64,000 bases of DNA from Heptranchias perlo (lineage: Eukaryota). Under the pieces are notes generated by a model. It saw only the letters and a program-made list of their open reading frames with translations. It was not told where the DNA came from and did no database searches. The stretch's first letter is position 1. Each line of letters starts with the position of its first letter. A program made the translations under genes and the position numbers. This document shows, piece by piece, positions 4,233-38,500 of the stretch. The stretch covers positions 1,860,001-1,924,000 of the forward strand of contig NC_090332.1 in assembly GCF_035084215.1 (NCBI RefSeq), written 5' to 3'.

Positions 4233-4984
4233 ATGCATTCCAGCAATCAACATATGCAACAGTCAGTTGTAATCCCCAACTGTTGCTACAAAACAGCGGT
4301 CTGCCACTCAATTGTCACTGAGCCAACTGGACCATTGCTTAGTCTTGTTGACTAAACACTGATTGAGCAATTGTTGAGCACTCAACCACAGAGAGATTAG
4401 TCCATCCGCTGCAGAAATCTATGGCAATAACAGCATCAAGAAAATCAGGAAGAATGAGGAATTAGATTAGTGGTCTGTGTACTTCTCTTTTTTTTGTCAA
4501 ATTTACAACCTGATCTCTCATTTTAAATATTCCTTTCACCAAAACTCTTACAGATAAGAGGCATGTTCACTAATTAATTTTTATTTACTTAAATTACAGT
4601 GTAGACTTTATGAATTGGCAGTCCCAGACAGAGTAGTCCCTAGCTGGGAGTTAGAGGATGCTCACCTGTTTACAGTTCATTGGCTTCCTGTAATGAACAA
4701 GATTGAAGGTTATAAAGATCGGCACAGAAAACAATCCCTTTTAAATTCCAGCACTGTTGGGAAAGCAGATCAGGAATTCAGGCACTGAGGTCAGTGAGAA
4801 TTCCCTTAGTGGTTCATACTAAGAATATTGCACATTTGGAGGATATGATTGTTATGGGAAATATTGCCCATGTGGGAGATATGGTTCATATGGGAGAACA
4901 GAGCTCCTACAGAGGTTATGATTCCCATGTGGGATATGCTCCATATAGTGATATGGATCATGTGGGCTCTTATAGGGATACATG

Positions 4985-5140
4985 ATTGAACTTTCCGTGA
5001 GGGTTCTCTGGGGGGAGATTGATGGAGCCCTTGGATAAATGGTAAAACTGGCCAGAAATGGCATTTACTCCATTTCTCCGGGGAATTTGTTGATTTCCCG
5101 CTGAAGTTACGGCAGAAGATCCCTGTGGAAATTCAGAGCC
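4985..5140. mobile_element. Degenerate MITE-like element (paralogue at ~35345-35500; same family at 16320-16466)
   Basis: Imperfect terminal inverted repeats (tgaactttccgtgagggttctct / agaagatccctgtggaaattca); internal 'gcatttactccatttctc' resembles 16400-16420. Confidence 0.45.
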
Positions 5141-5171
5141 AGGGTTCTTTTGGGGAAGCATCGTCCTTACA

Positions 5172-8100: not shown

Positions 8101-10676
8101 ATGCAGGGAATATGGTTCCTATAGGAGATACAGTGTATGTAGGGAATATGGTCCCTATAGGAGATACAGTGTATGTAGGGAATATGGTTCCTATAGGAGA
8201 TACTGTGTATGTATGGAATATGGTTCCTATAGGAGATACAGTGTATGTCGGGAATACTGTTCCTATAAGAGATACAGTGTATGTAGGGAATATGGTTCCT
8301 ATAGGAGATACAGTGTATTTAGTGAACATGGTTCCGATAGGAGATACAGTGTATGCAGGGAATATGGTTCCTATAGGAGATACAGTGTATGTAGTGAACA
8401 TGGTTCCTATAGGAGATACAGTGTATGCAGGGAATATGGTTCCTATAGGAGATACAGTGTATGTAGGGAATATGGTTCCGATAGGAGATACAGTGTATGT
8501 AGGGAATATGGTTCCTATAGGAGATACAGTGTATGTAGGGAATACGGTTCCTATAGGAAATACAGTGTATGTAGGGAATATGGTCCCTATAGGAGATACA
8601 GTGTATGTAGGGAATATGGTTCCTATAGGAGATACAGTGTATGTAGGGAATATGGTCCCTATAGGAGATACAGTGTATGTAGGGAATATGGTTCCTATAG
8701 GAGATACAGTGTATGTAGGGAATATGGTCCCTATAGGAGATACAGTGTATGTAGGGAATATGGTTCCTATAGGAGATACAGTGTATGTAGTGAACATGGT
8801 TCCTATAGGAGATACAGTGTATGTAGGGAATATGGTTCCTATAGGAGATACAGTGTATGCAGGGAATATGGTCCCTATAGGAGATACAGTGTATGCAGGG
8901 AATATGGTCCCTATAGGAGATACAGTGTATGTAGGGAATATGGTTCCTATAGGAGATACAGTGTATGTAGGGAATATGGTCCCTATAGGAGATACAGTGT
9001 ATGTAGGGAATATGGTTCCTATAGGAGATACAGTGTATGTAGGGAATATGGATCCTATAGGAGATACAGTGTATGTAGTGAACATGGTTCCTATAGGAGA
9101 TACAGTGTATGTAGTGAACATGGTTCCTATAGGAGATACAGTGTATGTAGTGAACATGGTTACGATAGGAGATACAGTGTATGTAGGGAATATGATTCCT
9201 ATAGGAGGTACAGTGTATGGAGGGAATATAGTTCCTATAGGAGATACAGTGTATGTAGGGAATATTGTTCCTATAAGAGATACAGTGTATGTAGGGAATA
9301 TGGTTCCTATAGGAGATACAGTGTATGTAGGGAATATGGTTCCTATAGGAGATACAGTGTATGTAGGGAATATGGTTCCTATAGGAGATACAGTGTATGT
9401 AGGGAATATGGTTCCTATAGGAGATACAGTGTATGTAGGGAATATAGTTCCTATAGGAGATACAGTGTATGTATGGAATATGGTTCCTATAGGAGATACA
9501 GTGTATGGAGGGAATATGGTTCCTATAGGAGATACAGTGTATGTAGTGAACATGGTTCCTATAGGAGATACAGTGTATGTAGGGAATATGGTTCCTATAG
9601 GAGATACATTGTATGTAGGGAATATGGTTCCTATAGGAGATACAGTGTATGTAGGGAATATGGTTCCTATAGGAGATACAGTGTATGTAGGGAATATGGT
9701 TCCTATAGGAGGTACAGTGTATGTAGGGAACATGGTTCCTATAGGAGATACAGTGTATGTCGGGAATATTGTTCCTATAGGAGATACATTGTATGTAGGG
9801 AATATGGTTCCTATAGGAGATACATTGTATGTAGGGAATATGGTTCCTATAGGAGATACATTGTATGTAGGGAATATGGTTCCTATAGGAGATACAGTGT
9901 ATGTAGGGAATATGGTTCCTATAGGAGATACAGTGTATGTCGGGAATATGGTTCCTATAGGAGGTACAGTGTATGTAGGGAACATGGTTCCTATAGGAGA
10001 TACAGTGTATGTCGGGAATATTGTTCCTATAGGAGATACAGTGTATGCAGGGAATATGGTTCCTATAGGAGATACAGTGTATGTAGGGAATATGGTTCCT
10101 ATAGGAGATACATTGTATGTAGGGAATATGGTTCCTATACGAGATACAGTGTATGGAGGGAATATGGTTCCTATAGGAGATACAGTGTATGTAGGGAATA
10201 TGGTTCCTATAGGAGATACAGTGTATGGAGGGAATATGGTTCCTATCGGAGATACAGTGTATGTAGGGAATATGGTTCCTATAGGAGGTACAGTGTATGT
10301 AGGGAACATGGTTCCTATAGGAGATACAGTGTATGTCGGGAATATTGTTCCTATAGGAGATACAGTGTATGTAGGGAATATGGTTCCTATAGGAGGTACA
10401 GTGTATGTCGGGAATATGGTTCCTATAGGAGGTACAGTGTATGGAGGGAATATGGTCCCTATAGGAGATACAGTGTATGTCGGGAATATGGTTCCTATGG
10501 GAGATACAGTGTATGGAGGGAATATGGTTCCTATAGGAGATACAGTGTATGGAGGGAATATGGTTCCTATAGGAGGTACAGTTTATGTAGGGAATATGGT
10601 TCCTATAGGAGATACAGTGTATGTGGGGAATATGGTTCCTTTCGGAGATACAGTGTATGCAGGGAATATGGTTCAT
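5172..10676. repeat. 36-bp satellite array A (GGAGATACAGTGTATGTAGGGAATATGGTTCCTATA), ~150 units
   Basis: Direct tandem repeats with 12-aa periodic translations. Confidence 0.98.
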
Positions 10677-11650: not shown

Positions 11651-11854
11651 TTCTCTGGAATTTCCTCCCTAAATGTTCCACCTCCCCACCTCCCTCTCCT
11701 TCCTCTAAGACTCTCCTTAAAACCTATCTCTTTGACCAAACTGATGGCCACCCCTCCTAATATCTCCTTCCACACCTTGACAGCCACTTTTCCCCTTACG
11801 CCTCCGTGATGTACCTTTGGGCATTTTTCCACGTTAAAGGTGTTTCAGTAAACG

Positions 11855-13908
11855 CGGATACAAGGTGTTCAGGAAAGATCGGGAAGGAAAGAAAGGACAG
11901 GGTTGGCAGTATTGATTAAGGAGAATATTGCAGTGCTGGAGAGAGAGGATGTCCTGGAGGGGTCAAGGACAGAATCTATTTGGTTAGAGTTAAGAAACAA
12001 TCGAGGTGCCATTACACTACTGGGTGTATTCTATAGGCCACCAACCAGTGGGAAGGATATAGAGGAGCTAATTTGCAGGGAAATTACAGAGAGGTGCAAA
12101 AGCCATCGAGTAGTGATAATGGGGACTTCAACTATCCAAATATCGACTGGGATAGTAATAATACAAGAGGCGAAGAGGGGGAAGAATTTTTGAAGTGTGT
12201 TCAGGAGAACTTTCCTGACCAATACATTTTGGGCCCAATGAGGAAGGAGGCATTGCTGGGGAATGAGGCGGGCCAAGTGGAGCAAGTGTCAATGGGGGAA
12301 CATTTAGGGAACAGTGATCATCGAGGCAGAGGGCATGGCCAAGGTACTAAATGAGTACTTTGTTTCTGTCTTTACCAAGGAAGAAGATGCTGGCAGAGTA
12401 TAATCTTCCAATCATCCTTCGATACAGGGGTAGTGCCAGAGGACTGGAGAAATGCAAATATTACACTCTTGTTCAAAAAAGGGTGTAAGGATAAACCCAG
12501 CAACTACAGGCCAGTCAGTTTAACCTCAGTGGTGGGAGATCTTTTAGAAACTATAATCCGGGACAGAATTAGCAGTCACTCGGATGAGTGTGGATTGATT
12601 TGGGAAAGCCAGCACGGATTTGTTAAAGGCAAGTCGTGTTTAACCAACTTGATAGAGTTTTTTGATGAGGTAACAGAGAGGGTAGATGAGGGCAATATGG
12701 TTGATGTGGCGTATATGGACTTTCAAAAGACGTTTGATAAAGTGCTGCATAATAGGCTTATCATCAAGATTCAAGCCCATGGAATAAAAGGGGCAGTGGC
12801 AATATGGATACAGAATTGGCTAAGTAACAGGAAACAGAGAGTAGTGGTGAACGGTTGTTTTTTGGACTGGAGGGAGGTGTACAGTGGTGTCCCCCAGGGG
12901 GTCAGTGCTGGAACCATGGCTTTTCTTGATATATATTAATGACTTGGACTTGGATGTACAGGGCACAATTTCCAAATTTGCAGATGACACAAAACTTAGA
13001 AGGGTAGTGAACAGTGAGAACGATAGTGATGGACTTCAAGAGGATATAGAGAGGCTGGTGGCATGGGCGGACATGTGGCAGATGAAATTTAATGCAGAAA
13101 AATGCGAGGTGATACATTTTGGTAGGAAGAATGAGGAAAGGCAATATAAACTAAAGGGCAGAATTCTAAAAGGGGTACAGGAACAGAGAGATCTGGGGGT
13201 ATTTGTGCACAAATCGTTGAAGGTGGCAGGACAGGTTGAGAAAGTGGTTAATAAAGCATACAGGATCCTGGGCTTTATAAATAGAGGGATAGAGTACAAA
13301 AGTACGGAAGTCATGCTGAACCTTTATAAAACACTGGTTTGGCCACAGCTGGAGTATTGTGTCCAGTTCTGGGCACCGCACTTTAGGAAGATGTGAAGGC
13401 CTTAGAGAGAGTGCAGAAGAAATTTACTAGAATGGTCCCAGGGATGAGGGATTTTAGTTACATAGATAGACTGGAGAAACTGGGATTGTTCTCCTTGGAA
13501 CAGAGGCAGTTGAAAGGAGATTTGATCGAGGTATTCAAAATCATGAAGGGTCGAGACAGGGTAGATAGAAATAAACTCTTCCCATTGGTGGAAGGGTCAA
13601 GAACCAGAGGACATAGATTTAAGGTGATTGGCAAAAGAACCAAAGGTGACTTGAGGAAAACTTTTTTACCCAGCGAGTGGTTATGATCTGGAATGCACTG
13701 CCCGAGGGGGTGGTGGAGGCAGATTCAATCATGGTCTTCAAAAGGGAACTGGATAAGTACTTGAAACAAAACAAAATTTGCAGGGCTACGGGGAAAGGGC
13801 GGGGGAGTGGGACTAGCTGGATTGCTCTTGCATAGAGCCGGCACGGACTTGATGGGCCAAATGGCCTCTTTTCATGCTGTAACCTTTCTATGATTGTATT
13901 ATTCTATA
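11855..13908 (+). mobile_element. CR1-type LINE, internally deleted and frameshifted (endonuclease fragment, RT, 3' tail)
   Basis: APE-like 'ESIWLEL..GVFYRPP..VVIMGDFNYPNIDW'; RT motifs 'NYRPVSLTSVVG', 'QHGFVKGKSCLTNL', 'SGVPQG', 'SKFADDTKL'; several frameshifts; 'ttctatgatt' tail. Confidence 0.95.
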
Positions 13909-14233: not shown

Positions 14234-14285
14234 ATGATTCTCAGAGCACCCGTTTCAGTCACTCTGATCTTCTGCTTTGTTGCTG
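14234..14285 (+). CDS. Exon 1: signal peptide of the V-V-TM-ITAM immunoreceptor (MILRAPVSVTLIFCFVA-G)
   Basis: aaaATG context, hydrophobic leader, phase-1 donor G|gtgagt typical of IgSF leader exons. Confidence 0.8.
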
Positions 14286-15626: not shown

Positions 15627-16319
15627 TTTGTTACTGGACTAATAATCCAGAGAACGTGAATTCAAATCCCACCATGGGCAGTTTGAGAATTTGAATTCAG
15701 TTTAAAAATCTGGTATCAGTAAAAGTGACCATGAGCTGTCGGATTGTCGTTTGGTCAGGCAGCCAATTTTCATTCCGACCTTTGCCCCCAAAGTCCTTGT
15801 TTGGTAATATCTTACGGACAGTGCGCACTTTGTGAAAAGCAGAGAGCGCTGAGATCATGTGACGCTAGACATGGAGACAGGCAGCTCCTGACACTTTCCA
15901 TGTGTAAAGACAGGATACTCCTGTCCGTCACTATTAATCGCCCAGTTAGACCACGCTTTCACATCGAGCAGGGGTCTCTGCAGAAGGAGGAGTGCAGCAA
16001 ATTGCACCCAATGCCATCAATGAACTGTTCACTGCCAGAACGGGCGGTCGGCCAAAGTCAAAATGGAGCCCATCCTATCGCTCTCAGCACTGGCACGCAA
16101 CATTCTACAGGTGAAGTGTTATCACTGGGACGGGCTGCCTTCAGCCACAGAAATCTGTAAACGTTATACCATCGGACAGTCGTGTCGGGGTGACATTCCA
16201 CTGTGTTAATTTGCGACTTTTTATTTTCCATCCCCCAGGGTAGCAGCAGCCGCTCCTGAATAAAGATTATGAATCATAGCTGCAACTAAAGAGATGTTCG
16301 TCCCTTTCTAATCTGTCGC

Positions 16320-16466: not shown

Positions 16467-16572
16467 GCTTCTAATCTGAAACGGAGAGAGATCGTAAAAG
16501 TTGTTAAGTTGCGGCCTTACCATTTGTTGTTTTTGTTCCGTGATTTCATGCTGTAAATGTTTACCTTTCTAG

Positions 16573-16914
16573 GGGCAATGAATAACCCGATCCTTATTCA
16601 ATCACCCCCAGTTATTACTGTGGTGAAGGGGCTGACTGTGCAGCTGTGGTGTGCCATGTATGATGCCTGTGTGAGTACAACCAATGTATACTGGTACCAG
16701 CAGAGGCCTGGGACAGAGTCCACATGGGTGATAAGTTTACAACCCACCCCTATTTGGAAAAGAGGTTTCCCTCATCGATTTTGGCCTTCCAGAGAAGTCG
16801 CCAGGAACATATACCTTCTGACCATCAGAGACGTGCAGCCCAGTGACACCGCTCTCTATACCTGCGGTGTGAGGGGAGCTTACCCTGAAGCAGGAACTCG
16901 GCTGAATGTAACCA
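16573..16914 (+). CDS. Exon 2: V-set Ig domain D1 with germline J-like strand
   Basis: Acceptor tttctag|, donor |gtaagt, phase 1-1. Has IQSP, B-strand Cys (LWC), WYQQRPG, RF, LTI, D-x-A-x-Y-x-C (DTALYTC) and G strand AGTRLNVT. Confidence 0.92.
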
Positions 16915-17705: not shown

Positions 17706-18044
17706 GTGCTCCCGTTATTATCCAGTCTCCGAGCCTGGAACGTGTCACAGAGGGTCAGACAGCCCGGTTACAGTGCACCATACAGAAGGCCACAGTGAGA
17801 GACACCGATGTCCACTGGTACCGGCAACTACCAGGGCAAGATATGGAGTGGGTTTTAACACACGATGTAATGAACAACACACGAGGGGGCCCAGGGTTCA
17901 CTGACCGTTTCCAGCCTTCCAGAGACATCGCCAATAACAGCTTCATTCTGACAATCACAAACGTGCAGCCCAGTGACACTGCCGTCTATTACTGTAAAGT
18001 GTGGGGAGATATCAGTGGGAATGGAACCCAGCTCAATATAACCA
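17706..18044 (+). CDS. Exon 3: V-set Ig domain D2 with germline J-like strand
   Basis: Acceptor tgtgcag|, donor |gtaagt, phase 1-1. Has IQSP, ARLQC, WYRQLPG, DRF, LTITNVQPSDTAVYYC and J-like GNGTQLNIT. Confidence 0.94.
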
Positions 18045-19219: not shown

Positions 19220-19512
19220 GACAATGCAGCACTCCCTGAGTACTGATCCTCCGACAGTGCAGGTTTCCCTCAATACTGACCCTCCGACAGTGCAGGTTTC
19301 CCTCAATACTGACCCTCCTACAGTGCAGCACTCCCTCAGTACTGACCCTCCGACATTGCAGTACCCACCCACTTAATCTCCTCCCGCAATCCATGTGCAC
19401 TCTCCCCTATCATGGACTCTACCCACCCATTTACTCTCCTCCCACAGCCCATGTGCACTCTCCCCTATCATGGACTCTACCCACCCATTTAATCTCCTCC
19501 CACAGCCCATGT
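19220..19512. repeat. 33-bp minisatellite (cagtgcagcactccctcagtactgaccctccga) followed by a ~2.5x 58-bp tandem repeat
   Basis: Direct repeats; 'ccatgt' recurs at 19391, 19449 and 19507. Confidence 0.85.
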
Positions 19513-19635
19513 AAATGGCACCATTACCAGATCCCAAGGTTTCCCTGACCGTTTTCAGCCATCCAGGAATGTCACCAGTAACAGTTACATTCTGACCATT
19601 GTGAATGTGCCACTGCTGCCTACAAACGTGAGGCC
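19508..19635 (+). pseudogene. Remnant of a third V-domain exon (pseudo-exon)
   Basis: Translates HVNGTITRSQGFPDRFQPSRNVTSNSYILTIVNV, homologous to D2 GFTDRFQPSRDIANNSFILTITNV; then a 10-bp deletion and TAAYKR in place of TAVYYC; N-terminal half missing. Confidence 0.85.
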
Positions 19636-22378: not shown

Positions 22379-22513
22379 TTTCTGAAGCACAAGTGGATCG
22401 AGATGTGAAGACGACCCTTGTCTGGATCATTCTGGGGGCTGTGCTGGGAGTTACTGTCATTACTGGAGGCATTTTACTCATCAGATATAAACTTTTTGGG
22501 AAAAAACAATCCC
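22379..22513 (+). CDS. Exon 4: stalk and transmembrane (ISEAQVDRDVKTT LVWIILGAVLGVTVITGGILLI RYKLFGKKQS)
   Basis: Strong acceptor ttttcctttcacag|, donor |gtatgt, phase 1-1; 22-aa hydrophobic helix followed by basic stop-transfer residues; not in the ORF track. Confidence 0.88.
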
Positions 22514-22694: not shown

Positions 22695-22768
22695 CATCAT
22701 CGGGTACAGCTGGTGATCAGGACACAACTGCAGATTATGAAAATATTTCTTGTGCAAGAGACACACGG
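22695..22768 (+). CDS. Exon 5: cytoplasmic (PSSGTAGDQDTTADYENISCARDTR)
   Basis: Acceptor ttacttcacag|, donor |gtgagt, phase 1-0 in frame with exon 4; DYENI tyrosine motif. Confidence 0.82.
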
Positions 22769-23359: not shown

Positions 23360-24440
23360 CTTCCACTGCCATCCACTCCATCCACTCCATCCCTTCTTCC
23401 ACTCCATCCACTCCATCCCATCTTCCACTCCCATCCACTCCATCCGAACTTTCACTCCCATCCACTCCATCCCATCTTCCACTCCCATCCACTCCATCCG
23501 AACTTTCACTCCCATCCACTCCATCCCATCTTCCACTCCCATCCACTCCATCCGAACTTTCACTCCCATCCACTCCATCCCATCTTCCACTCCCATCCAC
23601 TCCATCCCATCTTTCACTCCCATCCACTCCATCCCATCTTTCACTCCCATCCACTCCATCCCATCTTCCACTCCCATCCACTCCATCCCATCTTCCACTC
23701 CCATCCACTCCATCCCATCTTCCACTCCCATCCACTCCATCCCATCATCCACTCCCATCCACTCCATCCGAACTTTCACTCCCATCCACTCCATCCCATC
23801 TTCCACTCCCATCCACTCCATCCGAACTTTCACTCCCATCCACTCCATCCCATCTTTCACTCCCATCCACTCCATCCCATCTTCCACTCCCATCCACTCC
23901 ATCCCATCGTCCACTCCCATCCACTCCATCCCTTCTTCCACTCCCATCCACTCCATCCCATCGTCCACTCCCATCCACTCCATCCCATCTTCCACTCCCA
24001 TCCACTCCATCCCATCTTTCACTCCCATCCACTCCATCCCATCTTTCACTCCCATCCACTCCATCCCATCTTTCACTCCCATCCACTCCATCCCATCTTT
24101 CACTCCCATCCACTCCATCCGAACTTTCACTCCCATCCACTCCATCCCATCTTCCGCTGCCATCCACTCCATCCCATCTTCCACTCCCTTCCACTCCATC
24201 CCATCGTCCACTCCCATCCACTCCATCCCATCTTCCACTCCCATCCACTCCATCCCATCTTTCACTCCCATCCACTCCATCCCATCTTCCACTGCCATCC
24301 ACTCCATCCCATCTTTCACTCCCATCCACTCCATCCCATCTTCCACTGCCATCCACTCCATCCCATCTTTCACTCCCATCCACTCCATCCCATCTTCCAC
24401 TGCCATCCACTCCATCCCATCTTTCAGTCCTATCCACTCT
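23360..24440. repeat. 27-bp pyrimidine-rich minisatellite (CACTCCCATCCACTCCATCCCATCTTC)
   Basis: Direct tandem repeats with 9-aa periodic translation. Confidence 0.95.
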
Positions 24441-24689
24441 CCCCTCCTTCACTGCCGTCCATTCTGCCATCCTTTTCCTCCCTCTGCCATCCATTCCTGC
24501 TACTGGTCCTTCCCACTGCCATCCACTACCCCCACCCAAACTGCTGTCCATTTCCCTCCTCAAATTCCTGCTGCCATCCATTGTCAGCCTCCCTCTAACT
24601 ATCACCCCTTCTCTTTCTCCCTCTTCCACTGTCATTCATTCTGTCTTCTCCTTGACATCTCATTGAAACATACAAAATTCTTTCAGTGA

Positions 24690-25040
24690 TCCACAGGGTT
24701 GATGCAGGGAGGATGTTTCCCCTGGGTGGGGAGTCTAGAATCTGAGGTCACAATCTCAGAATAAGGGATAGGCTATTTTGCACAGAGATGAGGAGAAATT
24801 TCTTCACTCAGAGGATGGTGAATCTTTGCAATTCTCGACCCCAGAGGGCTGTGGAGGCTCAGTCATTGAGTACATTCAAAACAGAGATTGATAGATTTCT
24901 AGATATTAAAGGCATCAAGGGATATGGGGATAGTGCAGGAAAATGGCATTGAGGTAGAAGATCAGCCATGATCTTGTTGAATGGCGGAGCAGGCTCGAGG
25001 GGCCGGATGGCCCACTCCTGCTCCTATTTTTTATGTTCCA
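24690..25040 (+). mobile_element. CR1 LINE 3' fragment
   Basis: 'gaggagaaatttcttcactcagagg..gtgaatct', tail 'gggccggatggcccactcctgctcctatt'. Confidence 0.85.
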
Positions 25041-25649
25041 TTTCCTCCCTCCCCTCCCCTCGCTATCTATTTTGTTCCCCATGCCATTTATTCCCCCCTC
25101 CCCTGCTTCCCCCCACTCCTACCTGTGTTTGGCAGTTAATGCACTGGACAGATCCTGCTCTCTTTTCAGTGGTCTCATGGCACTAACGACCTGCATCACC
25201 AGAATGGGAATTCCTGCCTGCACTGAGGCAGATATCCCGGCCATTAGCACTGGGACCGTGCTGAGAGGAGAGAGCGACCTGCACTCGGGAGGAACAGAAC
25301 TGTGGTGCATTAAGCACTAACACACTGACTGGGGCCGCAAAACACTGACTGCCTGTGTGAAACACTGATGGTTGGCAAATAGGATTATGTATATGTTATA
25401 ATAACTGAGTAATCAGACCCGATGGGTTTACATGGTGCCGGACTGTGTGCTTGTTTGATTCAGTGTCTTCGGATCTGCAATTTTTTGCAAAGCAGTTGCT
25501 TTTCCAGAACTGTTCTAGACGCACCCTTGGCAGGAGAAACAGTGGTTTGTGGTATTCACCCCTGTAATTATAGCATGTAGTTGTAGGCATGGGACCAGCA
25601 GTAAATCTGGCCTTGTTCTGGGGATAATTGAAGTTTCAATCAGGTAACA

Positions 25650-25885
25650 TTAGAACATAAGAAATAGGAGCAGGAGTAGGCCATACGGCCTCTCAAGCCT
25701 GCTCCGCCATTCAACAAGACCATGGCTGATCTTCAACCTCAACTCCAATTTCCTGCCTGATCCCCACATCCCTTGATTCCCCTAGAGACCAAAAATCTAT
25801 CTATTTCAGCCTTGAATATACTCAACGACTGAGCATCCACAGCCCTCTGGAGCAGAGAATTCCAAAGATTCACAACCCACTGAGT
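25650..25885 (-). mobile_element. CR1 LINE 3' fragment
   Basis: 'agaacataagaaataggagcaggagtaggcc' tail, same family as 3757-4232. Confidence 0.85.
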
Positions 25886-26284
25886 AACCTGCAGTCCCAT
25901 TTTCTATTTGCTGTGCCTGTGTTTCTGACTCCACATTTGCTTGATTGGTATGTGAGCATTTGTTTAAAATCATTTCAGAATCCTTTAAAACTTGTCTTCG
26001 CAACTTTGCTGATAAACACTCTTATGGTATCTGAATTCCATTGCCATTATTGACTCCTACATGACATGACATTGTATGGTGTCCGTTCATGCTGTTCCCA
26101 GGTTGTTGCCACGCTGGCCTCAACTTATAGATTACAAGGTCAAGACTTTTTGGTCTTGGGAAAAATAAACTATAAGGCTTCTTTTAGGCTGGTTATACTT
26201 GTTACAAACACTCTACCCAACCCCGTGTCTCGCAATGTATCGAAAATAGTCAGAGTTTCTTCACTTGAATAATGAAGTGACAAA

Positions 26285-27070
26285 GAATCATACGAAGGTT
26301 ACAGGACAGAAGGATGGCATTCGGCCCATCGAGTCCAGGCTGGCTCTATGCAAGAGCAATCCAACTGGTCCCACTCCCCCGCCCTTTCCCCATACCCCTG
26401 CAAATTTTTTCCTTTCAAGTTCTTATCCAGTTCCCTTTTGAAGGCCATGATTGAATCTGCCTCCACCACCCCCTCGGGCAGTGCATTCCAGATCCTAACC
26501 ACTCGCTGTGTAAAAAAAAGTTTTTCCTCAGGTGTCTTTTGGTCTTTTACCAATCACCTTAAAATTATGTCCTCTGGTTCTTGACCATTCCACCAATGGG
26601 AACAGTTTCTATCTATCTACTCTGTCTAGACCCTTCATGATTTTGAATACCTCTATCAAATCTCCTCTCAACCGTTTCTGTTCCAAGGAGAACAATCCCA
26701 GCTTCTCCAGTCTATCCATTTAACTAAAGTCCCTCATCCCTGGAATCATTCTCGTAAATCTCTACTGCACCCTCTCTAAGGCCTTCACACCTTTTTTAAA
26801 GTGCGGTACCCAGAACTGGACACAATACTCCAGTTGTGGCCGAGCCAGTGTTTTATAAAGGTTCATCATGACTTCCTCACTTTTATACTCTTTGCCTCTA
26901 TTTATAAAGCCCAGGATCCCGTATGCTTTTTTAACCGGTTTCCCAACCTGCCCTACTACCTTCAATGATTTGTGTACATATACCCCCAGGTCACTCTGTT
27001 CCTGTTCCCCTTTTAGAATTGTGCCCTCTAGTTTATATTGCCTCTCCTCGTTCTTCCTACCGAAATGTGC
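26285..27070 (-). mobile_element. CR1 LINE 3' ~0.8 kb, same subfamily as 11855-13908
   Basis: ORFs 'KAYGILGFINRG..LYKTLARPQLEYCVQFW' and 'FFTQRVVRIWNALPEGVVEADSI'. Confidence 0.92.
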
Positions 27071-27520
27071 CTAGTTTTGTGGTCTAATCTTTCACATCCA
27101 TGGCTCTGACATATTTCCAATCTCTTTATCCACTTGTCCTGTCGTGGTCTGAGTGTGTGTCCAAGTTGTGAACCTCAAAGACTGGGAAAAGGAAATCTGC
27201 TCTCAGACTACACTCTGCTCCCTCTGCTGACTGTTTTTATGCAGGCCCCAGAACTGTGGTATTTTCATCTGACGGTTTCTTTTTGACGTGTTCTCAGTGG
27301 CTGTGCTGCATCTTGTTCCAGTTGGGGATATCCTTTATTTCATGCTTCTCTGCACTCACTTTACAAGACTGATTTGATCTGACTTCTTTTGGTTATCGAT
27401 TTAAGCAAAATGTGTGGATGACTGAAGTAACGTCAGTCGACGCAGTTGTCCCAGAGGATTCTTAAACCAACACCAGCAATATATTGGACAGGGTAACTAT
27501 CCATTTGTAATTTGTTGCAG

Positions 27521-27562
27521 AACTCTGGAGATCGTCCGGCAGATTCAAATGCCACGTACATG
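27521..27562 (+). CDS. Exon 6: cytoplasmic (NSGDRPADSNATYM), first part of ITAM
   Basis: Acceptor tttgttgcag|, donor ATG|gtaaga, 42 nt, phase 0-0. Confidence 0.8.
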
Positions 27563-27664
27563 GTAAGAAACTCCAATTTAAGAACGTTCAAAGGTTCCAA
27601 CTGACCCTTCATTGTGCACGTGTTACACGATGGCTGTTCCTATCATTTCTCTGTTTTCTGTTAG

Positions 27665-27721
27665 GCATTACAGCGACCGGATCAGTCCATATACAGTGAT
27701 CTTAAAGGTATGTTTCTGTAA
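27665..27721 (+). CDS. Exon 7: ALQRPDQSIYSDLKG(MFL*), completes the ITAM
   Basis: Polypyrimidine acceptor tttctctgttttctgttag|, phase 0; joined with exon 6 gives YMAL-x7-YSDL. A donor AAG|gtatgt after 27707 may lead to a further terminal exon; otherwise stop TAA at 27719-27721. Confidence 0.8.
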   Translation, partial: ALQRPDQSIYSDLKGMFL

Positions 27722-28815
27722 CACTTAACAAGGGTACAGGCAAAGCGTGTGTTATCTGTCAATTTTTGTACAAATGGTGAAACTGTGGGAAAATCTTCAT
27801 GTAAAATGATCCATAGCAGCAACATTGCAATGAGTCCAGTGGGGTAAGGGGCCGTTGGTAGCCCAGTACAGTGATGGATAATCACATCAATTTATTGCCC
27901 CGATTTTAACTTGGGGCAGGAGTGTACGGGCGGGCCGAGCCACAAGCTTGGCGCAGGACTGGGTGCGGTGGGGTATGGTGGGACGGGGGTTGGGACCGGG
28001 GGCGTGGGGCGGGTGACTGCAAGAGGCCGCTGCCATTTTAACCCCTGGGCTTCATCACCTGATGATTTTAATCGGACTCCCTGCACGATGCTGGTGGCAA
28101 CGACACGACGGCTGGCAGACGGGAGCAGGAAACTGGCGCAGTATCAGGCTGCCGCCAGGGACCCGAGGATATGGTCCCCAGCAAGTTCAGTGACGAGGGG
28201 GAGGGCGATTGATTTACGGGTAGGGGAAGAGAAGCCCAGGGCAGAGGAGGGCCAAGGATTCCTTGTGGGGCTGGGGAGCACTCCTGCCACGGAGGGATTT
28301 GAACACAAGGATGAGAATTTTATCTTCGAGGTGTTGTGGGACCGGGAGCCGTTGTAGGTCAGGGAGCACAGGGGTGAACGAGACTTAGTGCGGGATTGGT
28401 GCCTGTTGTAAAAGGTGCCCGTTCATGGTGTATCTGGAGTTAGATTCTCAGTCAAAGGACCTGGACCCTGTAAAGTTGTCTTCAACTCCTTCAACTCCTA
28501 TTTTTGTATTTCAAATATCCTTAACCCTTCCAAGATGAAATGTTTTTGGCTTGAAGGATAGAATCCCAGTGGACTGGAGAACTGTACAGGACTCGGAGAA
28601 GCCTGCTTCAATGGCCAGGAGGCACTTCTGTACAAACACCATGGATTAGCAAAATGAATCCTCTAAAACCAGCAGAAATGTTTCAAGAGCACCGACAGAG
28701 CGAAAAGTCATGAGGGAAAACAACAAGGAAGTGAAAGTAAATCCATGGAAACCAACAAAGAAACAGAGAACAAGAGAGGGCTTCTTTTAGCGATTCTTAC
28801 CCTCTCTCGGCAACT

Positions 28816-31601
28816 CTCAGGGCCCTGCCTCTATCAATATGCTCAGGGCCCTGTCTCTATCAATATGCTCAGGGCCCTGTCTCTATCAATATGCTCAGGG
28901 CCCTGTCTCTATATCAGTATGCTCAGGGCCCTGTCTCTCTATCAATATGCTCAGGGCCCTGTCTCTCTATCAATATGCTCAGGGCCCTGTCTCTCTATCA
29001 ATATGCTCAGGGCCCTGTCTCTATATCAATATGCTCAGGGCCCTGTCTCTCTATCAATATGCTCAGGGCCCTGTCTCTATATCAATATGCTCAGGGCCCT
29101 GTCTCTCTATCAATATGCTCAGGGCCCTGTCTCTATATCAATATGCTCAGGGCCCTGTCTCTCTATCAATATGCTCAGGGCCCTGCCACTATCAATATGC
29201 TCAGGGCCCTGTCTCTATCAATGTGCTCAGGGCCCTGTCTCTATCAATATGCTCAGGGCCCTGCCTCCATATCAATATGCTCAGGGCCCTGCCTCTATCA
29301 ATGTGCTCAGGGCCCTGTCCCTATCAATGTGCTCAGGGCCCTGTCTCGATATCAATATGCTCAGGGCCCTGTCTCTATCAATATGCTCAGTGCCCTGTCT
29401 CTATCAATATGCTCAGTGCCCTGTCTCTATCAGTATGCTCAGTGCCCTGCCTCCATATCAATATGCTCAGGGCCCTGCCTCTATCAATATGCTCAGTGCC
29501 CTGTCTCTATCAATATGCTCAGGGCCCTGTCTCTATACCAATATGCTCAGGGCCCTGCCTCTATATCAGTATGCTCAGTGCCCTGTCTCTATCAATACGT
29601 TCAGGGCCCTGTCTCTATCAATACGTTCAGGGCCCTGTCTCTATCAATATGCTCAGGGCCCTGTCTCTGTCAGTATGCTCAGGGCCCTGTCTCTGTCAGT
29701 ATGCTCAGGGCCCTGTCTCTATCAATATGCTCAGGGCCCTGTCTCTATCAATATGCTCAGGGCCCTGTCTCTGTCAGTATGCTCAGGGCCCTGTCTCTAT
29801 CAATATGCTCAGGGCCCTGTCTCTATCAATATGCTCAGGGCCCTGTCTCTCTATCAATGTGCTCAGGGCCCTGTCTCTCTATCAATATGCTCAGGGCCCT
29901 GTCTCTCTATCAATATGCTCAGGGCCCTGTCTCTCTATCAATATGCTCAGGGCCCTGCCTCTATCAATATGCTCAGGGCCCTGCCTCTATCAATATGCTC
30001 AGGGCCCTGTCTCTATCAATATGCTCAGGGCCCTGTCTCTATCAATATGCTCAGGGCCCTGTCTCTGTCAGTATGCTCAGGGCCCTGTCTCTATCAATAT
30101 GCTCAGGGCCCTGTCTCTATCAATATGCTCAGGGCCCTGTCTCTCTATCAATGTGCTCAGGGCCCTGTCTCTATCAATATGCTCAGGGCCCTGTCTCTGT
30201 CAGTATGCTCAGGGCCCTGTCTCTATCAATATGCTCAGGGCCCTGTCTCTATCAATATGCTCAGGGCCCTGTCTCTATCAATATGCTCAGGGCCCTGTCT
30301 CTATCAATATGCTCAGGGCCCTGTCTCTATCAATATGCTCAGGGCCCTGTCTCTATCAATATGCTCAGGGCCCTGTCTCTATCAATATGCTCGGGGCCCT
30401 GTCTCTATCAATATGCTCAGGGCCCTGTCTCTCTATCAATGTGCTCAGGGCCCTGTCTCTATCAATATGCTCAGGGCCCTGTCTCTATCAATGTGCTCAG
30501 GGCCCTGTCTCTATCAATGTGCTCAGGGCCCTGTCTCTATCAATGTGCTCAGGGCCCTGTCTCTATCAATGTGCTCAGGGCCCTGTCTCTATCAATGTGC
30601 TCAGGGCCCTGTCTCTATCAATATGCTCAGGGCCCTGTCTCTCTATCAATGTGCTCAGGGCCCTGTCTCTATCAATGTGCTCAGGGCCCTGTCTCTCTAT
30701 CAATATGCTCAGGGCCCTGTCTCTATCAATGTGCTCAGGGCCCTGTCTCTATCAATGTGCTCAGGGCCCTGTCTCTATCAATATGCTCAGGGCCCTGTCT
30801 CTATCAATATGCTCAGGGCCCTGTCTCTATCAATATGCTCAGGGCCCTGTCTCTATCAATGTGCTCAGGGCCCTGTCTCTATCAATGTGCTCAGGGCCCT
30901 GTCTCTCTATCAATATGCTCAGGGCCCTGTCTCTATCAATATGCTCAGGGCCCTGTCTCTATCAATATGCTCAGGGCCCTGTCTCTATCAATATGCTCAG
31001 GGCCCTGTCTCTTTCAATGTGCTCAGGGCCCTGTCTCTATCAATATGCTCAGGGCCCTGTCTCTCTATCAATATGCTCAGGGCCCTGTCTCTCTATCAAT
31101 ATGCTCAGGGCCCTGTCTCTCTATCAATATGCTCAGGGCCCTGTCTCTATCAATGTGCTCAGGGCCCTGTCTCTCTATCAATATGCTCAGGGCCCTGTCT
31201 CTCTATCAATATGCTCAGGGCCCTGTCTCTATCAATGTGCTCAGGGCCCTGTCTCTCTATCAATATGCTCAGGGCCCTGTCTCTATCAATATGCTCAGGG
31301 CCCTGTCTCTGTCAGTATGCTCAGGGCCCTGTCTCTATCAATATGCTCAGGGCCCTGTCTCTATCAATGTGCTCAGGGCCCTGTCTCTCTATCAATATGC
31401 TCAGGGCCCTGTCTCTCTATCAATATGCTCAGGGCCCTGTCTCTCTATCAATATGCTCAGGGCCCTGTCTCTATCAATATGCTCAGGGCCCTGTCTCTCT
31501 ATCAATATGCTCAGGGCCCTGTCTCTATCAATGTGCTCAGGGCCCTGTCTCTCTATCAATATGCTCAGGGCCCTGTCTCTCTATCAATGTGCTCAGGGCC
31601 C
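28816..31601. repeat. 26-bp minisatellite, copy B (~2.8 kb)
   Basis: Same unit and identical flanks as 1186-2555. Confidence 0.97.
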
Positions 31602-32511
31602 GACGCTCTCACTCCCTCGCTCCACACTCTTGAGGCTCTCACCCTTTCAGAAAGGAAAACTAAATTTTCTCAACACGTCATTTAATTTGTCCTCTGTTCA
31701 GAGTACTGTCTTAATACTAATGTCCCCCAAGTCACAGACCAGAAGCACATGATTGCTACCTGTTGCTTGTTGTATAAAATGCAACTTTTCCAAACACACA
31801 CTGTAATCACTCTAAATCAGTTTTATTATTGTGCTCTGGTAGGTTGGGTCCAGCTATCGCTGCACTGCTGTAATGGTGGAATCAAATGTATTTTTCTGAT
31901 TTTGATGGCTCTGTATTAACTTTGAATATACAGTAGTTTAATAAAATATTTGACATTGCAGTGGGGCCCATTGTGATTTAGCTATTTGCTGATAAATCTT
32001 CTTCACGTATCTGGGTATTCTAAACGATCTTCCCACTCGAACCATTGCTTGAAATTAATTTTTTTCGTAACAGCTGTTTTAAACCAGGCTGACACAGTAG
32101 TTTGAAGTTTGCAATACTGCACACGAAGATTGCAACATCAGACTACAGAATCTGTTGAAAGGTCTGCACCAAACATTTCAGAGTCCATTTTTACTCACCA
32201 GCATTTGCAAGAAAGATTTTTTCGATCTTGTTTAAAGTCTGGAGACTGAGAATGAAATGTTGACAAGGCAGAATCACTGGACTTTCAGGGGCAGAAACAG
32301 AACTTCAGGTAGAGAGAGCACGGACAGTTTCCCTGTTTGGAAGCCCAGAGCATCCTCCGCACTCCACAGTGGCTGACAGAGTTTGCACAACATGCCAATT
32401 CGCTCTTCACCATCCAAAGACACGCATCAAATCCCCAACAATGTTGTTTGGCCCTGCGGTGACCCACCAATAACTCTCACCAGATAGATGGGCAAAGTGT
32501 TTACTTGCACC

Positions 32512-33852
32512 CTTTTTTTTATTTGTTCATGGGATGCGGGCGTCGCTGGCGAGGTCGGCATTTATTGCTCATCCCTAATTGCCCTTGATAAGGTGGTGGT
32601 GAGCCGCCTTCTTGAACCACTGCAGTCCGTGTGGTGACGGTTCTCCCACAGTGCTGTTAGGAAGGGAGTTCCAGGATTTTGACCCAGCGACGATGAAGGA
32701 ACGGCGATATATTTCCAAGTCGGGATGGTGTGTGACTTGGAGGGGAACGTGCAGGTGGTGTTGTTTCCATGTGCCTGCTGCTCTTGTCCTTCTAGGTGGT
32801 AGAGGTCGCGGGTTTGGGAGGTGCTGTCGAAGAAGCCTTGGCGATTTGCTGCAGTGCATCCTGTAGATGGTACACACTGCAGCTATGGTGCGCCGGTGGT
32901 GAAGGGAATGAATGTTTATGGTGGTGGATGGGGTGCCAATCAAGCGGGCTGCTTTGTCCTGGATAGTGTCGAGCTTCTTGAGTGTTGTTGGAGTTGCACT
33001 CATCCAGGCAAGTGGAGAGTATTCCATCACACTCTTGACTTGTGCCTTGTAGATGGTGGAAAGGCTCTGGGGAGTCAGGAGGTGAATCACTCGCCGCAGA
33101 ATACCCAGCCTCTGACCTGCTCTCGTAGCCACAGTATTTATGTGGCGGATCCAGTTAAGTTTCTGGTCAATGGTGATCCCCAGGATGTTGATTGTGGGGG
33201 ATTCGGCGATTGTAATGCCATTGAATGACAAGGGGAGGTGGTTAGACTCTCTCTTGTGAAGATGATCATTGCCTGGCACTTGTCTGGCGCGAATGTTACT
33301 TGCCACTTAGCCCAAACCTGGATGTTGTCCAGGTCTTGCTGCATGTGGGCACGGACTGCTTCATTATCTGAGGGGTTGCAAATGGATCTGAACAGTGTGC
33401 AATCATGAGTGAACATCCCCATTTCTGACTTTGTGATGGAGGGAAGGTCATTGATGAAGCAGCTGAAGATGGTTGGGCCTAGGACACTGCCCTGAGGAAC
33501 TCCTACAGCAATGCCCTGGGGCTGAGATGATTGGCCTCCAACACTCACTACCATCTTCCTTTGTGCCAGGTATGACTCCAGCCACTGGTGAGTTTTCCCC
33601 CTGATTCCCATTGACTTCAATTTTACTAGGGCTCCTTGGTGCCACACTCTGTCAAATGCTACCTTGATGTTAAGGCCAGTCACTCTCACCTCACCTCTGG
33701 AATTCAGCTCTTTTGTCCATGTTTGGACCAAGGCTGTAATGAGGTCTGGAGCCAAGTGGTCCTGGCGGAACCCAAACTGAGCGTCGGTGAGCAGGTTATT
33801 GGTGAGTAAGTGCTGCTTGATAGCACTGTCAAGGACACCTTCCATCACTGAT
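32512..33852 (-). mobile_element. 5'-truncated non-LTR retrotransposon (CR1/L2-group RT), specific to copy B
   Basis: 'AQFGFRQ', 'AFDRVWH', 'GVPQGSVLGPTIFSCFINDLP', 'IYKAQVKSVMEY'; poly-A tail seen as a T-run at ~32513; frameshifted. Confidence 0.92.
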
Positions 33853-34196
33853 TCATGGCTGATCTTTGACCTCATCTCTACTTTCCTGCCCAATCCCCAA
33901 CTCAGCATCCATAGCCCTCTGGAGTAAAGAATTCCAAAGATTCACAATCCTCCGAGTGAAGAAATTCCTCCTCATCTCATTCTTAAATGGCCGACCTCAT
34001 ATCATGCGACTATGCCCCCTAGTTCTAGATTCTCTAGCCATGGGAAACAACCTCTCAGCATCTACCCTGTCAAGCCCCCTCAGAGTCTTATAGGTTTCAA
34101 TAAGATCACGTCTCATTCTTCTAAACTCCAGAGAGTATAGGCCCATTCTCCTCAACCTCTCCTCATGGGACAACCCTCTCGTCCCAGGAATTAATC
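33853..34196 (-). mobile_element. CR1 3' fragment, paralogue of 3827-4232
   Basis: ORF 33997-34224 LSHEERLRRMGLYSLEFRRMRRDLIETY. Confidence 0.88.
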
Positions 34197-34964
34197 TATG
34201 CATTCCAGCAATCAACATATGCAACAGTCAGTTGTAATCCCCAACTGTTGCTACAAAACAGCGGTCTGCCACTCAATCGTCACTGAGCCAACTGGACCAT
34301 TGCTTCGTCTTGTTGACCAAACACTGTTTGAGCAATTGTTGAGCACTCAACCACAGAGAGATTAGTCCATCCACTGCAGAAATCTATGGCAATAACAAAA
34401 TCAAGAAAATCAGGAAGAATGAGGAATTAGATTAGTGGTCTGTGTACTTCTCTTTTTTTTTGTCAAATTTACAACCTGATCTCTCATTTTAAATATTCCT
34501 TTCACCAAAACTTTTACAGATAAGAGGCATGTTCACTAAATAACTTTCATTTACTTAAATTACAGTGTAGACTTTATAAATTGGCAGTCCCAGACAGAGT
34601 AGTCCCTAGCTGGGAGTTAGAGGATGCTCACCTGTTTACAGTTCATTGGCTTCCTGTAATGAACAAGATTGAAGGTTATAAAGATCGGCACAGAAAACTA
34701 TCCCTTTTAAATTCCAGCACTGTTGGGAAAGCAGATCAGGAATTCAGGCACTGAGGTCAGTGAGAATTCCCTCTGGAAGAACGCAGTCGGATAATTCACC
34801 TCAGCTTACAACAGAAGTAACTGTAGGATGGGGATGAGAGCCACCTGGAGAAGTCCTGAGGGAAGGAGAGAGGAAAAACTGGGAGCCTGACCCCTTTCCT
34901 TACTCTTCTCTGAAGTGCCTTGGGATATCTTTCTGTGTTAAAAGCGTGACATCAGTGTTATTGT

Positions 34965-35345
34965 TGGGATCTGGTTCATATTGAGAAATAAGTCCATATG
35001 GGGATAGTGTTCATATGGGGGCGTTATGGTTCATTGGAGGGATATGGTTCCTAAAGGGAATATTAGTCAAATGGAGTTATGGTTCATACCAGGGATATGG
35101 TTCCTATAGGGAATATGGTTCATACAGGGAATGTGGTTCAAATGGAGGATATGTTCGATATGGGAGATTTGGTTCAAACTGAGAATATTGCACATTTGGA
35201 GGATATGATTGTTATGGGAAATATTGCCCATGTGGGAGATATGGTTCATATGGGAGAACACAGCTCCGACAGAGGTTATGATTCCCATGTGGGAGATGCT
35301 CCATATAGTGATATGGATCATGTGGGCTCTTATAGGGATACATGA
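34965..35345. repeat. Degenerate ~18-bp tandem repeat (gggaatatggttcatata-like)
   Basis: 'atggttc' and variants recur at about 18-bp spacing; partial paralogue at 4810-4985. Confidence 0.75.
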
Positions 35346-35511
35346 TTGAACTTTCTGTGAGGGTTCTCTAGGGGGAGATTGATGGAGCCCCTGGATAAAT
35401 GGTAAAGCTGGCCAGAAATGGCATTTACTCCATTTCTGCGGAGAATTTGTTGATTTCCCGCTGAGGGACATCAGGAGATCCCTGTGGAAATTCAGAGCCA
35501 TGGTTCATTTG

Positions 35512-38500
35512 GGGAAACATGGTTCCTATAGGAGGTACAATGTATGTAGGGAATATGGTCCCGATAGGAGGTACAGTGTATGCAGGGAACATAGTTCCGA
35601 TAGGAGATACAGTGTATGTAGGGAATATGGTTCCTATAGGAGGTACAATGTATGCAGGGAACATGGTTCCTTTAGGAGATACAGTGTATGTAGGGAATAT
35701 GGTTCCTACAGGAGATACAGTGTATGTAGGGAATATGGTTCCTATAGGAGATACAGTGTATGCAGGGAACATGGTTCCTATAGGAGATACAGTGTATGCA
35801 GGGAATATGGTTCCTTTAGGAGATACAGTGTATGTAGGGAATACTGTTCCTATAGGAGATACAGTGTATGTAGGGAATATGGTTCCTTTAGGAGATACAG
35901 TGTATGTAGGGAATACTGTTCCTATAGGAGATACAGTGTATGTAGGGAATATGGTTCCTATAGGAGATACAGTGTATGCAGGGAACATAGTTCCTATAGG
36001 AGATACAGTGTATCCAGGGAACATAGTTCCTATAGGAGATACAGTGTATGTAGGGAATATGGTTCCTATAGGAGGTACAATGTATGCAGGGAATATGGTT
36101 CCTATAGGAGATACAGTGTATGTAGGGAATATGGTTCCTATAGGAGATACAGTGTATGCAGGGAACATAGTTCCTTTAGGAGATACAATGTATGCAGGGA
36201 ATATGGTTCCTATAGGAGATACAGTGTATGTAGGGAATATGGTTCCTATAGGAGATACAGTGTATGTAGGGAATATGGTTCCTATAGGAGATACAGTGTA
36301 TGTAGGGAATATGGTTCCTATAGGAGATACAGTGTATGCAGGGAACATGGTTCCTATAGGAGATACAGTGTATGCAGGGAATATGGTTCCTTTAGGAGAT
36401 ACAGTGTATGTAGGGAATACTGTTCCTATAGGAGATACAGTGTATGGAGGGAATATGGTTCCTATAGGAGATACAGTGTATGTAGGGAATATGGTTCCGA
36501 TAGGAGATACAGTGTATGCAGGGAACATAGTTCCTATAGGAGATACAGTGTATGTAGGGAACATGGTTCCTATAGGAGATACAGTGTATGCAGGGAACAT
36601 AGTTCCTATAGGAGATACAGTGTATGTAGGGAACATGGTTCCTATAGGAGATACAGTGTATGCAGGGAATATGGTTCCTTTAGGAGATACAGTGTATGTA
36701 GGGAATACTGTTCCTATAGGAGATACAGTGTATGTAGGGAATATGGTTCCTATAGGAGATACAGTGTATGTAGGGAATATGGTTCCTATAGGAGATACAG
36801 TGTATGTTTGGAATATGGTTCCTATAGGAGATACAGTTTATGTAGGGAACATGGTTCCTATAGGAGATACAGTGTATGTAGGGAATACTGTTCCTATAGG
36901 AGATACAGTGTATGTAGGGAACATGGTTCCTATAGGAGATACAGTGTATTTAGGGAATACTGTTCCTATAGGAGATACAGTGTATGCAGGGAACATGGTT
37001 CCTATAGGAGATACAGTGTATGCAGGGAATATGGTTCCTTTAGGAGATACAGTGTATGTAGGGAATACTGTTCCTATAGGAGATACCGTGTATGTAGGGA
37101 ATATGGTTCCTATAGGAGATACAGTGTATGTAGGGAATATGGTTCCTATAGGAGATACAGTGTATGTTTGGAATATGGTTCCTATAGGAGATACAGTGTA
37201 TGTAGGGAATATGGTCCCTATAGGAAATACAGTGTATGTAGGGAATATGGTCCCTATAGGAGATACAGTGTATGTAGGGAATATGGTCCCTATAGGAGAT
37301 ACAGTGTATGTAGGGAATATGGTTCCTATAGGAGATACAGTGTATGTAGGGAATATGGTTCCTATAGGAGATACAGTGTATGTAGGGAATATGGTTCCTA
37401 TAGGAGATACAGTGTATGTAGGGAACATGGTTCCTATAGGAGATACAGTGTATGTAGGGAATATGGTTCCTACAGGAGATACATTGTATGTAGGGAATAT
37501 GGTTCCTATAGGAAATACAGTGTATGTAGGGAATATGGTCCCTATAGGAAATACAGTGTATGTAGGGAATATGGTTCCTATAGGAGATACAGTGTATGTA
37601 GGGAATATGGTTCCTATAGGAGATACAGTGTATGTAGGGAATATGGTTCCTATAGGAGATACAATGTATGTAGGGAATATGGTTCCTATAGGAGATACAG
37701 TTTATGTAGGGAACATGGTTCCTATAGGAGATACAGTGTATGTAGGGAATATGGTTCCTATAGGAAATACAGTGTATGTAGGGAATATGGTTCCTATAGG
37801 AGATACAGTGTATGTAGGGAATATGGTTCCTATAGGAGATACAAGGTATGTAGGGAATATGGTTCCTATAGGAGATACAGTTTATGTAGGGAACATGGTT
37901 CCTATAGGAGATACAGTGTATGTAGGGAATATGGTTCCTATAGGAGATACATTGTATGTAGGGAATATGGTTCCTATAGGAGATACAATGTATGTAGGGA
38001 ATATAGTTCCTATAGGAGATACAGTGTATGTAGGGAATATGGTTCCTATAGGAGATACAATGTATGTAGGGAATATGGTTCCTATAGGAGATACAGTTTA
38101 TGTAGGGAACATGGTTCCTATAGGAGATACAGTGTATGTAGGGAATATGGTTCCTATAGGAAATACAGTGTATGTAGGGAATATGGTTCCTATAGGAGAT
38201 ACAGTGTATGTAGGGAATATGGTTCCTATAGGAGATACAATGTATGTAGGGAATATGGTTCCTATAGGAGATACAGTTTATGTAGGGAACATGGTTCCTA
38301 TAGGAGATACAGTGTATGTAGGGAATATGGTTCCTATAGGAGATACAGTGTATGTAGGGAATATGGTTCCTATAGGAGATACAGTGTATGCAGGGAATAT
38401 GGTTCCTATAGGAGATACATTGTATGTAGGGAATATGGTTCCGATAGGAAATACAGTGTATGTAGGGAATATGGTTCCTATAGGAGATACAGTGTATGTA

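Follow-up and report, generated by a model that had tools for sequence, protein, structure and literature searches.

A candidate activating paired receptor of sharks and rays, with a two-exon ITAM that resembles the tails of CEACAM-like receptors

Results

Gene structure in the Heptranchias perlo window

We analysed a window of 64,000 nucleotides from Heptranchias perlo (contig NC_090332.1 of assembly GCF_035084215.1, positions 1,860,001 to 1,924,000, forward strand). Its plus strand carries a gene whose first seven exons are all open, have GT-AG sites and compatible phases, and join into one open frame (Table 1); the product is identical to database model P0106 over the first 343 residues of that model. 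The G-x-G-T motif that gives V2 its J-like end is altered in V1, where Glu takes the place of the first Gly. We found no exact recombination-signal heptamer or nonamer at the ends of the V exons and no C1 exon among exons 1 to 7. The 21-residue core of the transmembrane (TM) segment is free of D, E, K and R in 12 of 12 ITAM-type members of the family described below. Two database models begin instead at an alternative first exon (15900-16112), which has no obvious leader.

Table 1. Features of the receptor gene and its 3' flank (window coordinates)
Feature	Position	Strand	Description
Exon 1	14234..14285	+	leader peptide; donor phase 1
Exon 2	16573..16914	+	single-exon V domain V1; Pfam V-set E 6.5e-14
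Exon 3	17706..18044	+	single-exon V domain V2; G-x-G-T J-like end; Pfam V-set E 3.3e-19
Exon 4	22379..22513	+	uncharged TM segment; 135 nt; phase 1-1; in frame if skipped
Exon 5	22695..22768	+	cytoplasmic; 74 nt; YENI (YxN, Grb2-type consensus); phase 1-0
Exon 6	27521..27562	+	42 nt; phase 0-0; acceptor AG, donor GTAAGA; ends on Y-x of first ITAM module
Intron 6	27563..27664	+	102 bp; GT-AG; phase 0; within first YxxL
Exon 7	27665..27707	+	remainder of ITAM; donor GTATGT; phase 1
Terminal exon 8b, start	28557..28587	+	X2 pattern match; completes Gly, then stop
3' duplicate	27879..35527	+	copy at 250-5167, four blocks, 94-99% identity (self-BLAST); likely the 3' end of an upstream paralogue

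Splicing creates the ITAM

Joined, exons 6 and 7 read YMAL-x7-YSDL, with N at -3 and D at -5 of the first tyrosine. The original prediction, that this ITAM arises only by splicing over a short phase-0 intron, is confirmed: exon borders and contig joints agree. Contigs of the public runs X1, X2 and X3, aligned to 27080-27875, show a 102-base skip with GT..AG ends, and their loose end before 27520 is the end of exon 5. The exons are used, as joints 5-6-7 are present in the run contigs, and both tyrosines are kept in shark and ray relatives (20 of 20 ITAM tails). The joint was seen in three of four runs, since the X4 contigs do not cover exons 6 and 7; all four runs come from one sample, and their RNA nature is a guess by the search tool, none being recorded as RNA. 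The tail of this gene is identical to that of a twin copy (100 of the last 100 residues of the protein), so the joints may belong to either. An exon filter, devised after the motif was seen, picked out the pair in the 27-mer-free stretch 24440-27870 but a comparable pair in none of 1,000 first-order Markov sequences simulated for it.

The tail fits the consensus D/E/N-xx-YxxL/I-x7-YxxL/I and has the phase-0 intron of the classical two-exon ITAM, the layout described for adaptor chains (PMC4536121). Classical ITAMs have been stated always to be split within the first module, and the phase-0 split is given as a characteristic of CEACAM ITAMs (PMC2832619, PMC2110893, PMC5112662). The split itself is thus an ordinary, textbook layout. 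Under a stricter consensus that places an acidic residue at -1 to -3 (PMC2832619), the N at -3 makes this tail 'ITAM-like', and the Pfam ITAM model matched none of 8 whole proteins and none of 11 tails of the family. Among 20 family ITAMs, Y, L, Q and Y are invariant; position -3 is D, E or N in all 20 and D or E in 8.

Continuations beyond exon 7

The original prediction extended the feature to 27721, assuming that exon 7 reads through to a stop in intron 7, whereas the contigs stop by 27708. We rejected this read-through: it has no contig cover, a weak argument alone, and three spliced continuations are found in its place. That of X3 is a terminal exon, 8a, also present in database models of the twin; neither translation nor a motif search with 3 mismatches found exon 8a in the window. 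X1 and X2 each show two continuations of exon 7 merged in one row, the second of which we read out by hand as letter patterns. The X2 pattern matches exon 8b at 28557 and its duplicate at about 924-956, with 0.01 matches expected by chance; splicing to exon 8b would yield a 343-residue protein, and an AATAAA lies at 31940. The X1 pattern matches only the start of a V1-type exon (16571-16603; 0 expected). By hand count, the X1 agreement value of 0.57 is nearer to the V1 variant of the neighbouring gene (4 shared letters) than to the gene's own V1 (6 shared letters, 0.60). The X1 joint thus likely runs from exon 7 to the V1 of the inhibitory-type neighbour, beyond position 64000, as cross-gene read-through; back-splicing to the gene's own V1 is less likely.

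Duplication and repeats at the 3' flank

The breakpoint of the 3' duplication, at 27879, lies about 170 bases past exon 7. Behind each duplicate stands a 36-bp satellite, at 5173-10674 and at 35519-63996, the latter with about 791 copies over more than 28 kb. A remnant of a third V exon remains at 19508-19630, where 35 of 40 residues are like V3 of P0035; short tandem repeats flank it and the rest of the exon is missing. Broken LINE-type reverse-transcriptase pieces occupy 11850-13900, 26290-27070 (minus) and 32560-33950 (minus), and several short SINE-like copies lie in introns and flanks.

A shark and ray family of V-V receptors

A search with V2 gave 171 candidates, among them 104 longer proteins whose named members all come from sharks and rays; the matches at 95-100% identity are labelled H. 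perlo. By regular expressions, we classed the 104 tails as 20 ITAM, 42 ITIM-type, 7 third or unclear, and 35 partial or unclassified. The inhibitory-type tails carry two or three ITIM-like tyrosines. V2 is identical in 106 of 106 residues to that of the adjacent ITIM-tailed gene (adjacency as given by database models) and V1 in 104 of 114; six of these ten V1 differences fall in the loop that follows the second Cys (16870-16914). A second pair of activating and inhibitory type, P0105 and P0035, has identical V1 domains over 90 of 90 residues.

On a V2 tree of 41 rows, shark order required 7 changes, against a mean of 23.8 and a minimum of 20 in 300 shuffles, whereas tail type required 18 changes against a shuffle mean of 15.9. 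The rows were hand-picked models with readable tails, none was dropped, 13 of 36 inner branches are open, and two rows are long. The V domains of this family thus group by lineage and not by tail type, which is the paired-receptor pattern described for CEACAMs (PMC5112662): near-identical ectodomains are joined to opposite-type tails, and ligand domains are homogenised within lineages, as judged from protein-level tree counts. Together, these data indicate that the gene probably encodes the activating partner in a paired-receptor family of sharks and rays, a type I protein of the order leader-V-V-TM-YENI-ITAM, and that its inhibitory partner is likely the near-identical adjacent ITIM-type gene.

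We found no published description of this V-V family, nor of a switch from ITAM to ITIM by skipping of the first ITAM exon; an account of the family may exist in work on VJ-type innate receptors or in subscription journals. Searches of the PDB with V1 and V2 returned only antibodies, nanobodies and VpreB and did not name the family. In the Atlas search, the whole protein fell among generic V-set clusters, with NCR3-like clusters second (a lead only), and the tail alone scored 0.78, under the useful range.

The tail resembles those of cartilaginous-fish CEACAM-like receptors

We searched 1.84 billion protein representatives with a profile built from 11 family tails and obtained 13 matches at E up to 0.001. 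Seven exceeded 56 bits, namely six family members with full or partial tails and one unnamed repeat. Five cartilaginous-fish proteins followed at 36-40 bits, four of them named CEACAM-, PSG- or HEPACAM-like and one uncharacterised with the same tail type, and a second unnamed repeat scored 36 bits, level with the weakest CEACAM-like match. The only named matches outside the family were therefore cartilaginous-fish CEACAM-like receptors. NFAM1 and hagfish NICIR are also ITAM receptors, and neither was named among the matches.

In direct comparison, the tail aligned with five of six CEACAM-like proteins across 38-53 residues, at 41-53% identity and with E values between 8e-10 and 2e-8; the sixth has no ITAM. 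V1, V2 and the TM segment gave nothing better than E 0.004 against the same six proteins, and the J-like motifs of the V-V family are found in none of them. Outside the Y/L/Y/L positions, 8-11 of 22-23 residues match the CEACAM-like tails, a level reached by at most 4 of 100,000 shuffles, which ignore shared SH2 constraints. A word-seeded search with a Callorhinchus tail found five proteins only, all from Callorhinchus, and in Heterodontus and Cetorhinus the V-V family set and the CEACAM-like set lie on contigs of different length.

Discussion

Origin of the tail

These comparisons suggest, with somewhat better than even probability, that the three-exon tail of YxN plus ITAM has a common origin with the tails found on CEACAM-like receptors of cartilaginous fish. 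Less firmly, the cassette may have moved onto an unrelated ectodomain by exon shuffling. We would guess that CEACAM genes are perhaps its older holder, because the cassette occurs on chimaera CEACAM-like proteins while no chimaera V-V member was named among the matches.

It is possible, if rather unlikely, that the likeness is instead convergence under kinase and SH2 constraints and that the tail arose within the V-V family. The match spans only about 40 residues and was picked post hoc, the unnamed repeat at 36 bits equals the weakest CEACAM-like match, constraints from SH2 binding raise the identity between any ITAMs, and frog CEACAMs have YxN motifs at sites that are presumably not homologous (PMC5112662). 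Convergence accounts less well for the identity of spacer residues, up to 15 of 23 outside Y/L/Y/L (P0121 against P0059 and P0112), or for the similar distance from YxN to ITAM, which is 19-24 residues for most of the family and 21-24 for the CEACAM-like proteins. Moreover, CD3, CD79 and other ITAM chains are not among the listed matches from either the PDB or the library of 1.84 billion, and Callorhinchus model P0142 runs off just past its YxN segment, which would fit a phase-0 donor of the kind that ends exon 5. The original prediction pointed elsewhere, to shared ancestry with, or shuffling from, adaptor ITAM modules of DAP12 or FcR-gamma type, a source to which we give very little credence. 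The likeness in intron position on which it drew does hold (PMC4536121); as a pointer to adaptors it fails, because the phase-0 split is common to adaptors and CEACAM receptors and so cannot single out the former. At E up to 10, the profile had 10 matches in the PDB, and FcR-gamma was the sole immune chain among them; its two entries (E 0.16 and 0.17), however, did no better than the other eight, all from NDUFV3, an unrelated protein (best E 0.15). Of 22 non-motif residues, 4 match FcR-gamma by eye, fewer than match the CEACAM-like tails, and the large library returned CEACAM-like receptors and zero adaptors. A weak search for proteins of 30-170 residues sharing three words with the tail found none. 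The resemblance to the second half of the DAP12 ITAM, which we take to be YSDL, dissolves within the family, as only 4 of 20 ITAMs have this D. The present data are compatible with the descent of all two-exon ITAMs from one very old ancestor.

Alternative splicing and integrity of the gene

The original prediction also proposed that skipping exon 6 switches the receptor from activating to inhibitory by leaving SIYSDL as an ITIM. The skip does preserve the frame, and SIYSDL fits the ITIM consensus (I/L/V/S)xYxx(L/V) (PMC2832619), with S at -2 in 19 of 20 family ITAMs; its tyrosine would not be the only one left, since YENI of exon 5 stays. Regulated skipping nevertheless appears highly improbable to us. 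The contigs of X1-X3, from which rare forms drop out, show no 5-7 joint and no loose end where exon 7 begins, and exon 6 is retained in all six database models that represent the gene or its twin. The exon 7 half is present in 41 of 125 family proteins; the ITAM is complete in 38 of these, exon 6 is absent from two, and one, P0053, uses an acceptor 9 nt downstream; the same in-frame AG exists here at 27672-27673, where its use would drop three residues, and the short form breaks the first YxxL. Even the two models without exon 6 count for little: P0024 seems to be a truncated version of a gene that is modelled whole in P0118, and P0028 alone represents its cluster, while its sister, P0031, carries exon 6 twice, suggesting loss at the DNA level. 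Four CEACAM-like ITAMs also have S-x-Y, which makes it a trait of the ITAM class and not an ITIM design, and dedicated inhibitory-type genes exist in numbers within the family. A rare skip of exon 6 may still occur. A switch might alternatively work across genes, with the TM exon skipped and exon 7 joined to the neighbour's V1, so that a four-V inhibitory receptor would result in which the former ITAM is an extracellular linker. We consider this distinctly improbable. The X1 continuation is a V1-type exon start and fits the neighbour's variant better; all three database models of the gene (P0007, P0106 and P0107) share the same join and are fused to the next gene and its inhibitory-type tail; P0007 lacks the TM exon, whose loss is a recurrent alternative form (9 of 41 family models); and the linker holds two N-x-S/T sequons. 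Yet the join appears in one run of three and may still be back-splicing, the database models may derive from the same reads, no single read carries both the TM skip and the cross-gene join, and P0007 begins at a different first exon. The topology would be unsound if the TM segment stayed in, and loss of a terminal exon often leads to read-through. The most far-reaching combination of these ideas, an undescribed family that took its tail from CEACAM genes and changes sign by two-gene splicing (TM in, a two-V activating form; TM out with read-through, a four-V inhibitory form), is to our minds similarly improbable. That the gene is a young, partly decayed duplicate whose twin is the working activating gene seems quite unlikely. 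The absence of terminal exon 8a from the window, the breakpoint just past exon 7, the V-exon remnant, the altered J-like motif of V1 and the long satellite behind the gene would all fit decay. Against it, all seven exons are open with GT-AG splice sites, X2 makes use of the alternative terminal exon at 28557, whether in this gene or in its twin, and up to 36% of sampled V1-V2 words occur in the runs, near the exonic share.

In the catshark locus of P0031 and P0028, the doubling of exon 6 in one model and its lack in the other may stem from unequal crossing-over.

Relation to known receptor systems

The closest parallel is found in the ITAM-bearing CEACAMs of human (CEACAM3), dog (CEACAM28), opossum, Xenopus and reptiles, which have the same intrinsic ITAM with a phase-0 intron in the first YxxL, and likewise an upstream YxN or single-Y motif and ITIM partner genes with homogenised ligand domains, as described in PMC2832619, PMC2110893, PMC5112662 and PMC13278318. 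The cartilaginous-fish CEACAM-like proteins P0121-P0125 have the same activating type of tail, YxN plus ITAM. CEACAMs differ in their ectodomain, which consists of an N domain plus C2 domains, whereas this gene has two disulphide-type V domains with J-like ends. The adaptors FcR-gamma, DAP12, CD3, CD247 and CD79 share the ITAM consensus and its two-exon split but are described as having an acidic TM residue (PMC4536121), which 0 of 12 ITAM-type V-V members possess; unlike them, the receptor has its own two-domain ectodomain, and we found no kinship of the tail beyond the motif.

Teleost NITRs and NILTs are likewise clustered multigene receptors of the immunoglobulin superfamily (IgSF), and each has one V-type domain or two, together with ITIMs or an ITAM (PMC3022915). 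The CX3C, CX6C or CX7C motifs and connecting-peptide exon described there for NILTs are missing here (V1 has CX5C, V2 none), and the V-V family has three or more tail exons, unlike NITRs and NILTs. Both ectodomains of this gene are V-set, compared with a V plus a V/C2 second domain in NITRs (a comparison by description only), and the 104 V2 matches from the word-seeded search include no protein named NITR or NILT and none from bony fish. The shark genes UrIg, UrIg2 and NCR3 also have single-exon VJ-type domains that do not rearrange (PMC12227049). In contrast to them, the V-V gene has no C1 domains and combines tandem V domains with a family of intrinsic ITAM or ITIM tails; the terms 'ITAM' and 'ITIM' do not occur in PMC12227049.

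Proposed mechanism

By analogy with established ITAM biology (see PMC4034164), clustering by ligand would lead a Src-family kinase to phosphorylate both ITAM tyrosines, and Syk or ZAP-70 would then dock on the doubly phosphorylated motif via tandem SH2 domains, while YEN could recruit a Grb2-type adaptor. The receptor is expected to signal without DAP12 or FcR-gamma, because the TM core is uncharged in all 12 ITAM-type members. The inhibitory counter-signal would come from neighbouring ITIM-type genes and not from exon 6 skipping, with duplication or gene conversion presumably keeping the V exons of the partners alike. As in CEACAM pairs, both partners likely share a pathogen or self ligand.

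Implications

The search for relatives of the gene that RAG split is directed at single-exon VJ-type genes (PMC12227049), and few paired receptors of NK or myeloid type have been described in sharks, where more are expected (PMC6795676). The V-V family supplies named candidates for that role, with V domains of this kind, activating and inhibitory-type members, and lineage-wise homogenisation. Its tail is also a case in which the possible transfer of a signalling cassette between unrelated IgSF receptors can be tested. Any interest of the locus lies in the surrounding gene, which belongs to a probably little-described family, and not in the split ITAM.

Two further tail arrangements occur in the family. 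In P0004, P0021, P0083, P0086 and P0068 (carpet shark and catshark), a TM and first tail segment of inhibitory type are followed by ITAM exons, as if tails had been swapped within the cluster. A third type of tail, with two YxN-like tyrosines and no ITAM, is found in several sharks (P0069, P0070, P0074, P0078, P0081 and P0091).
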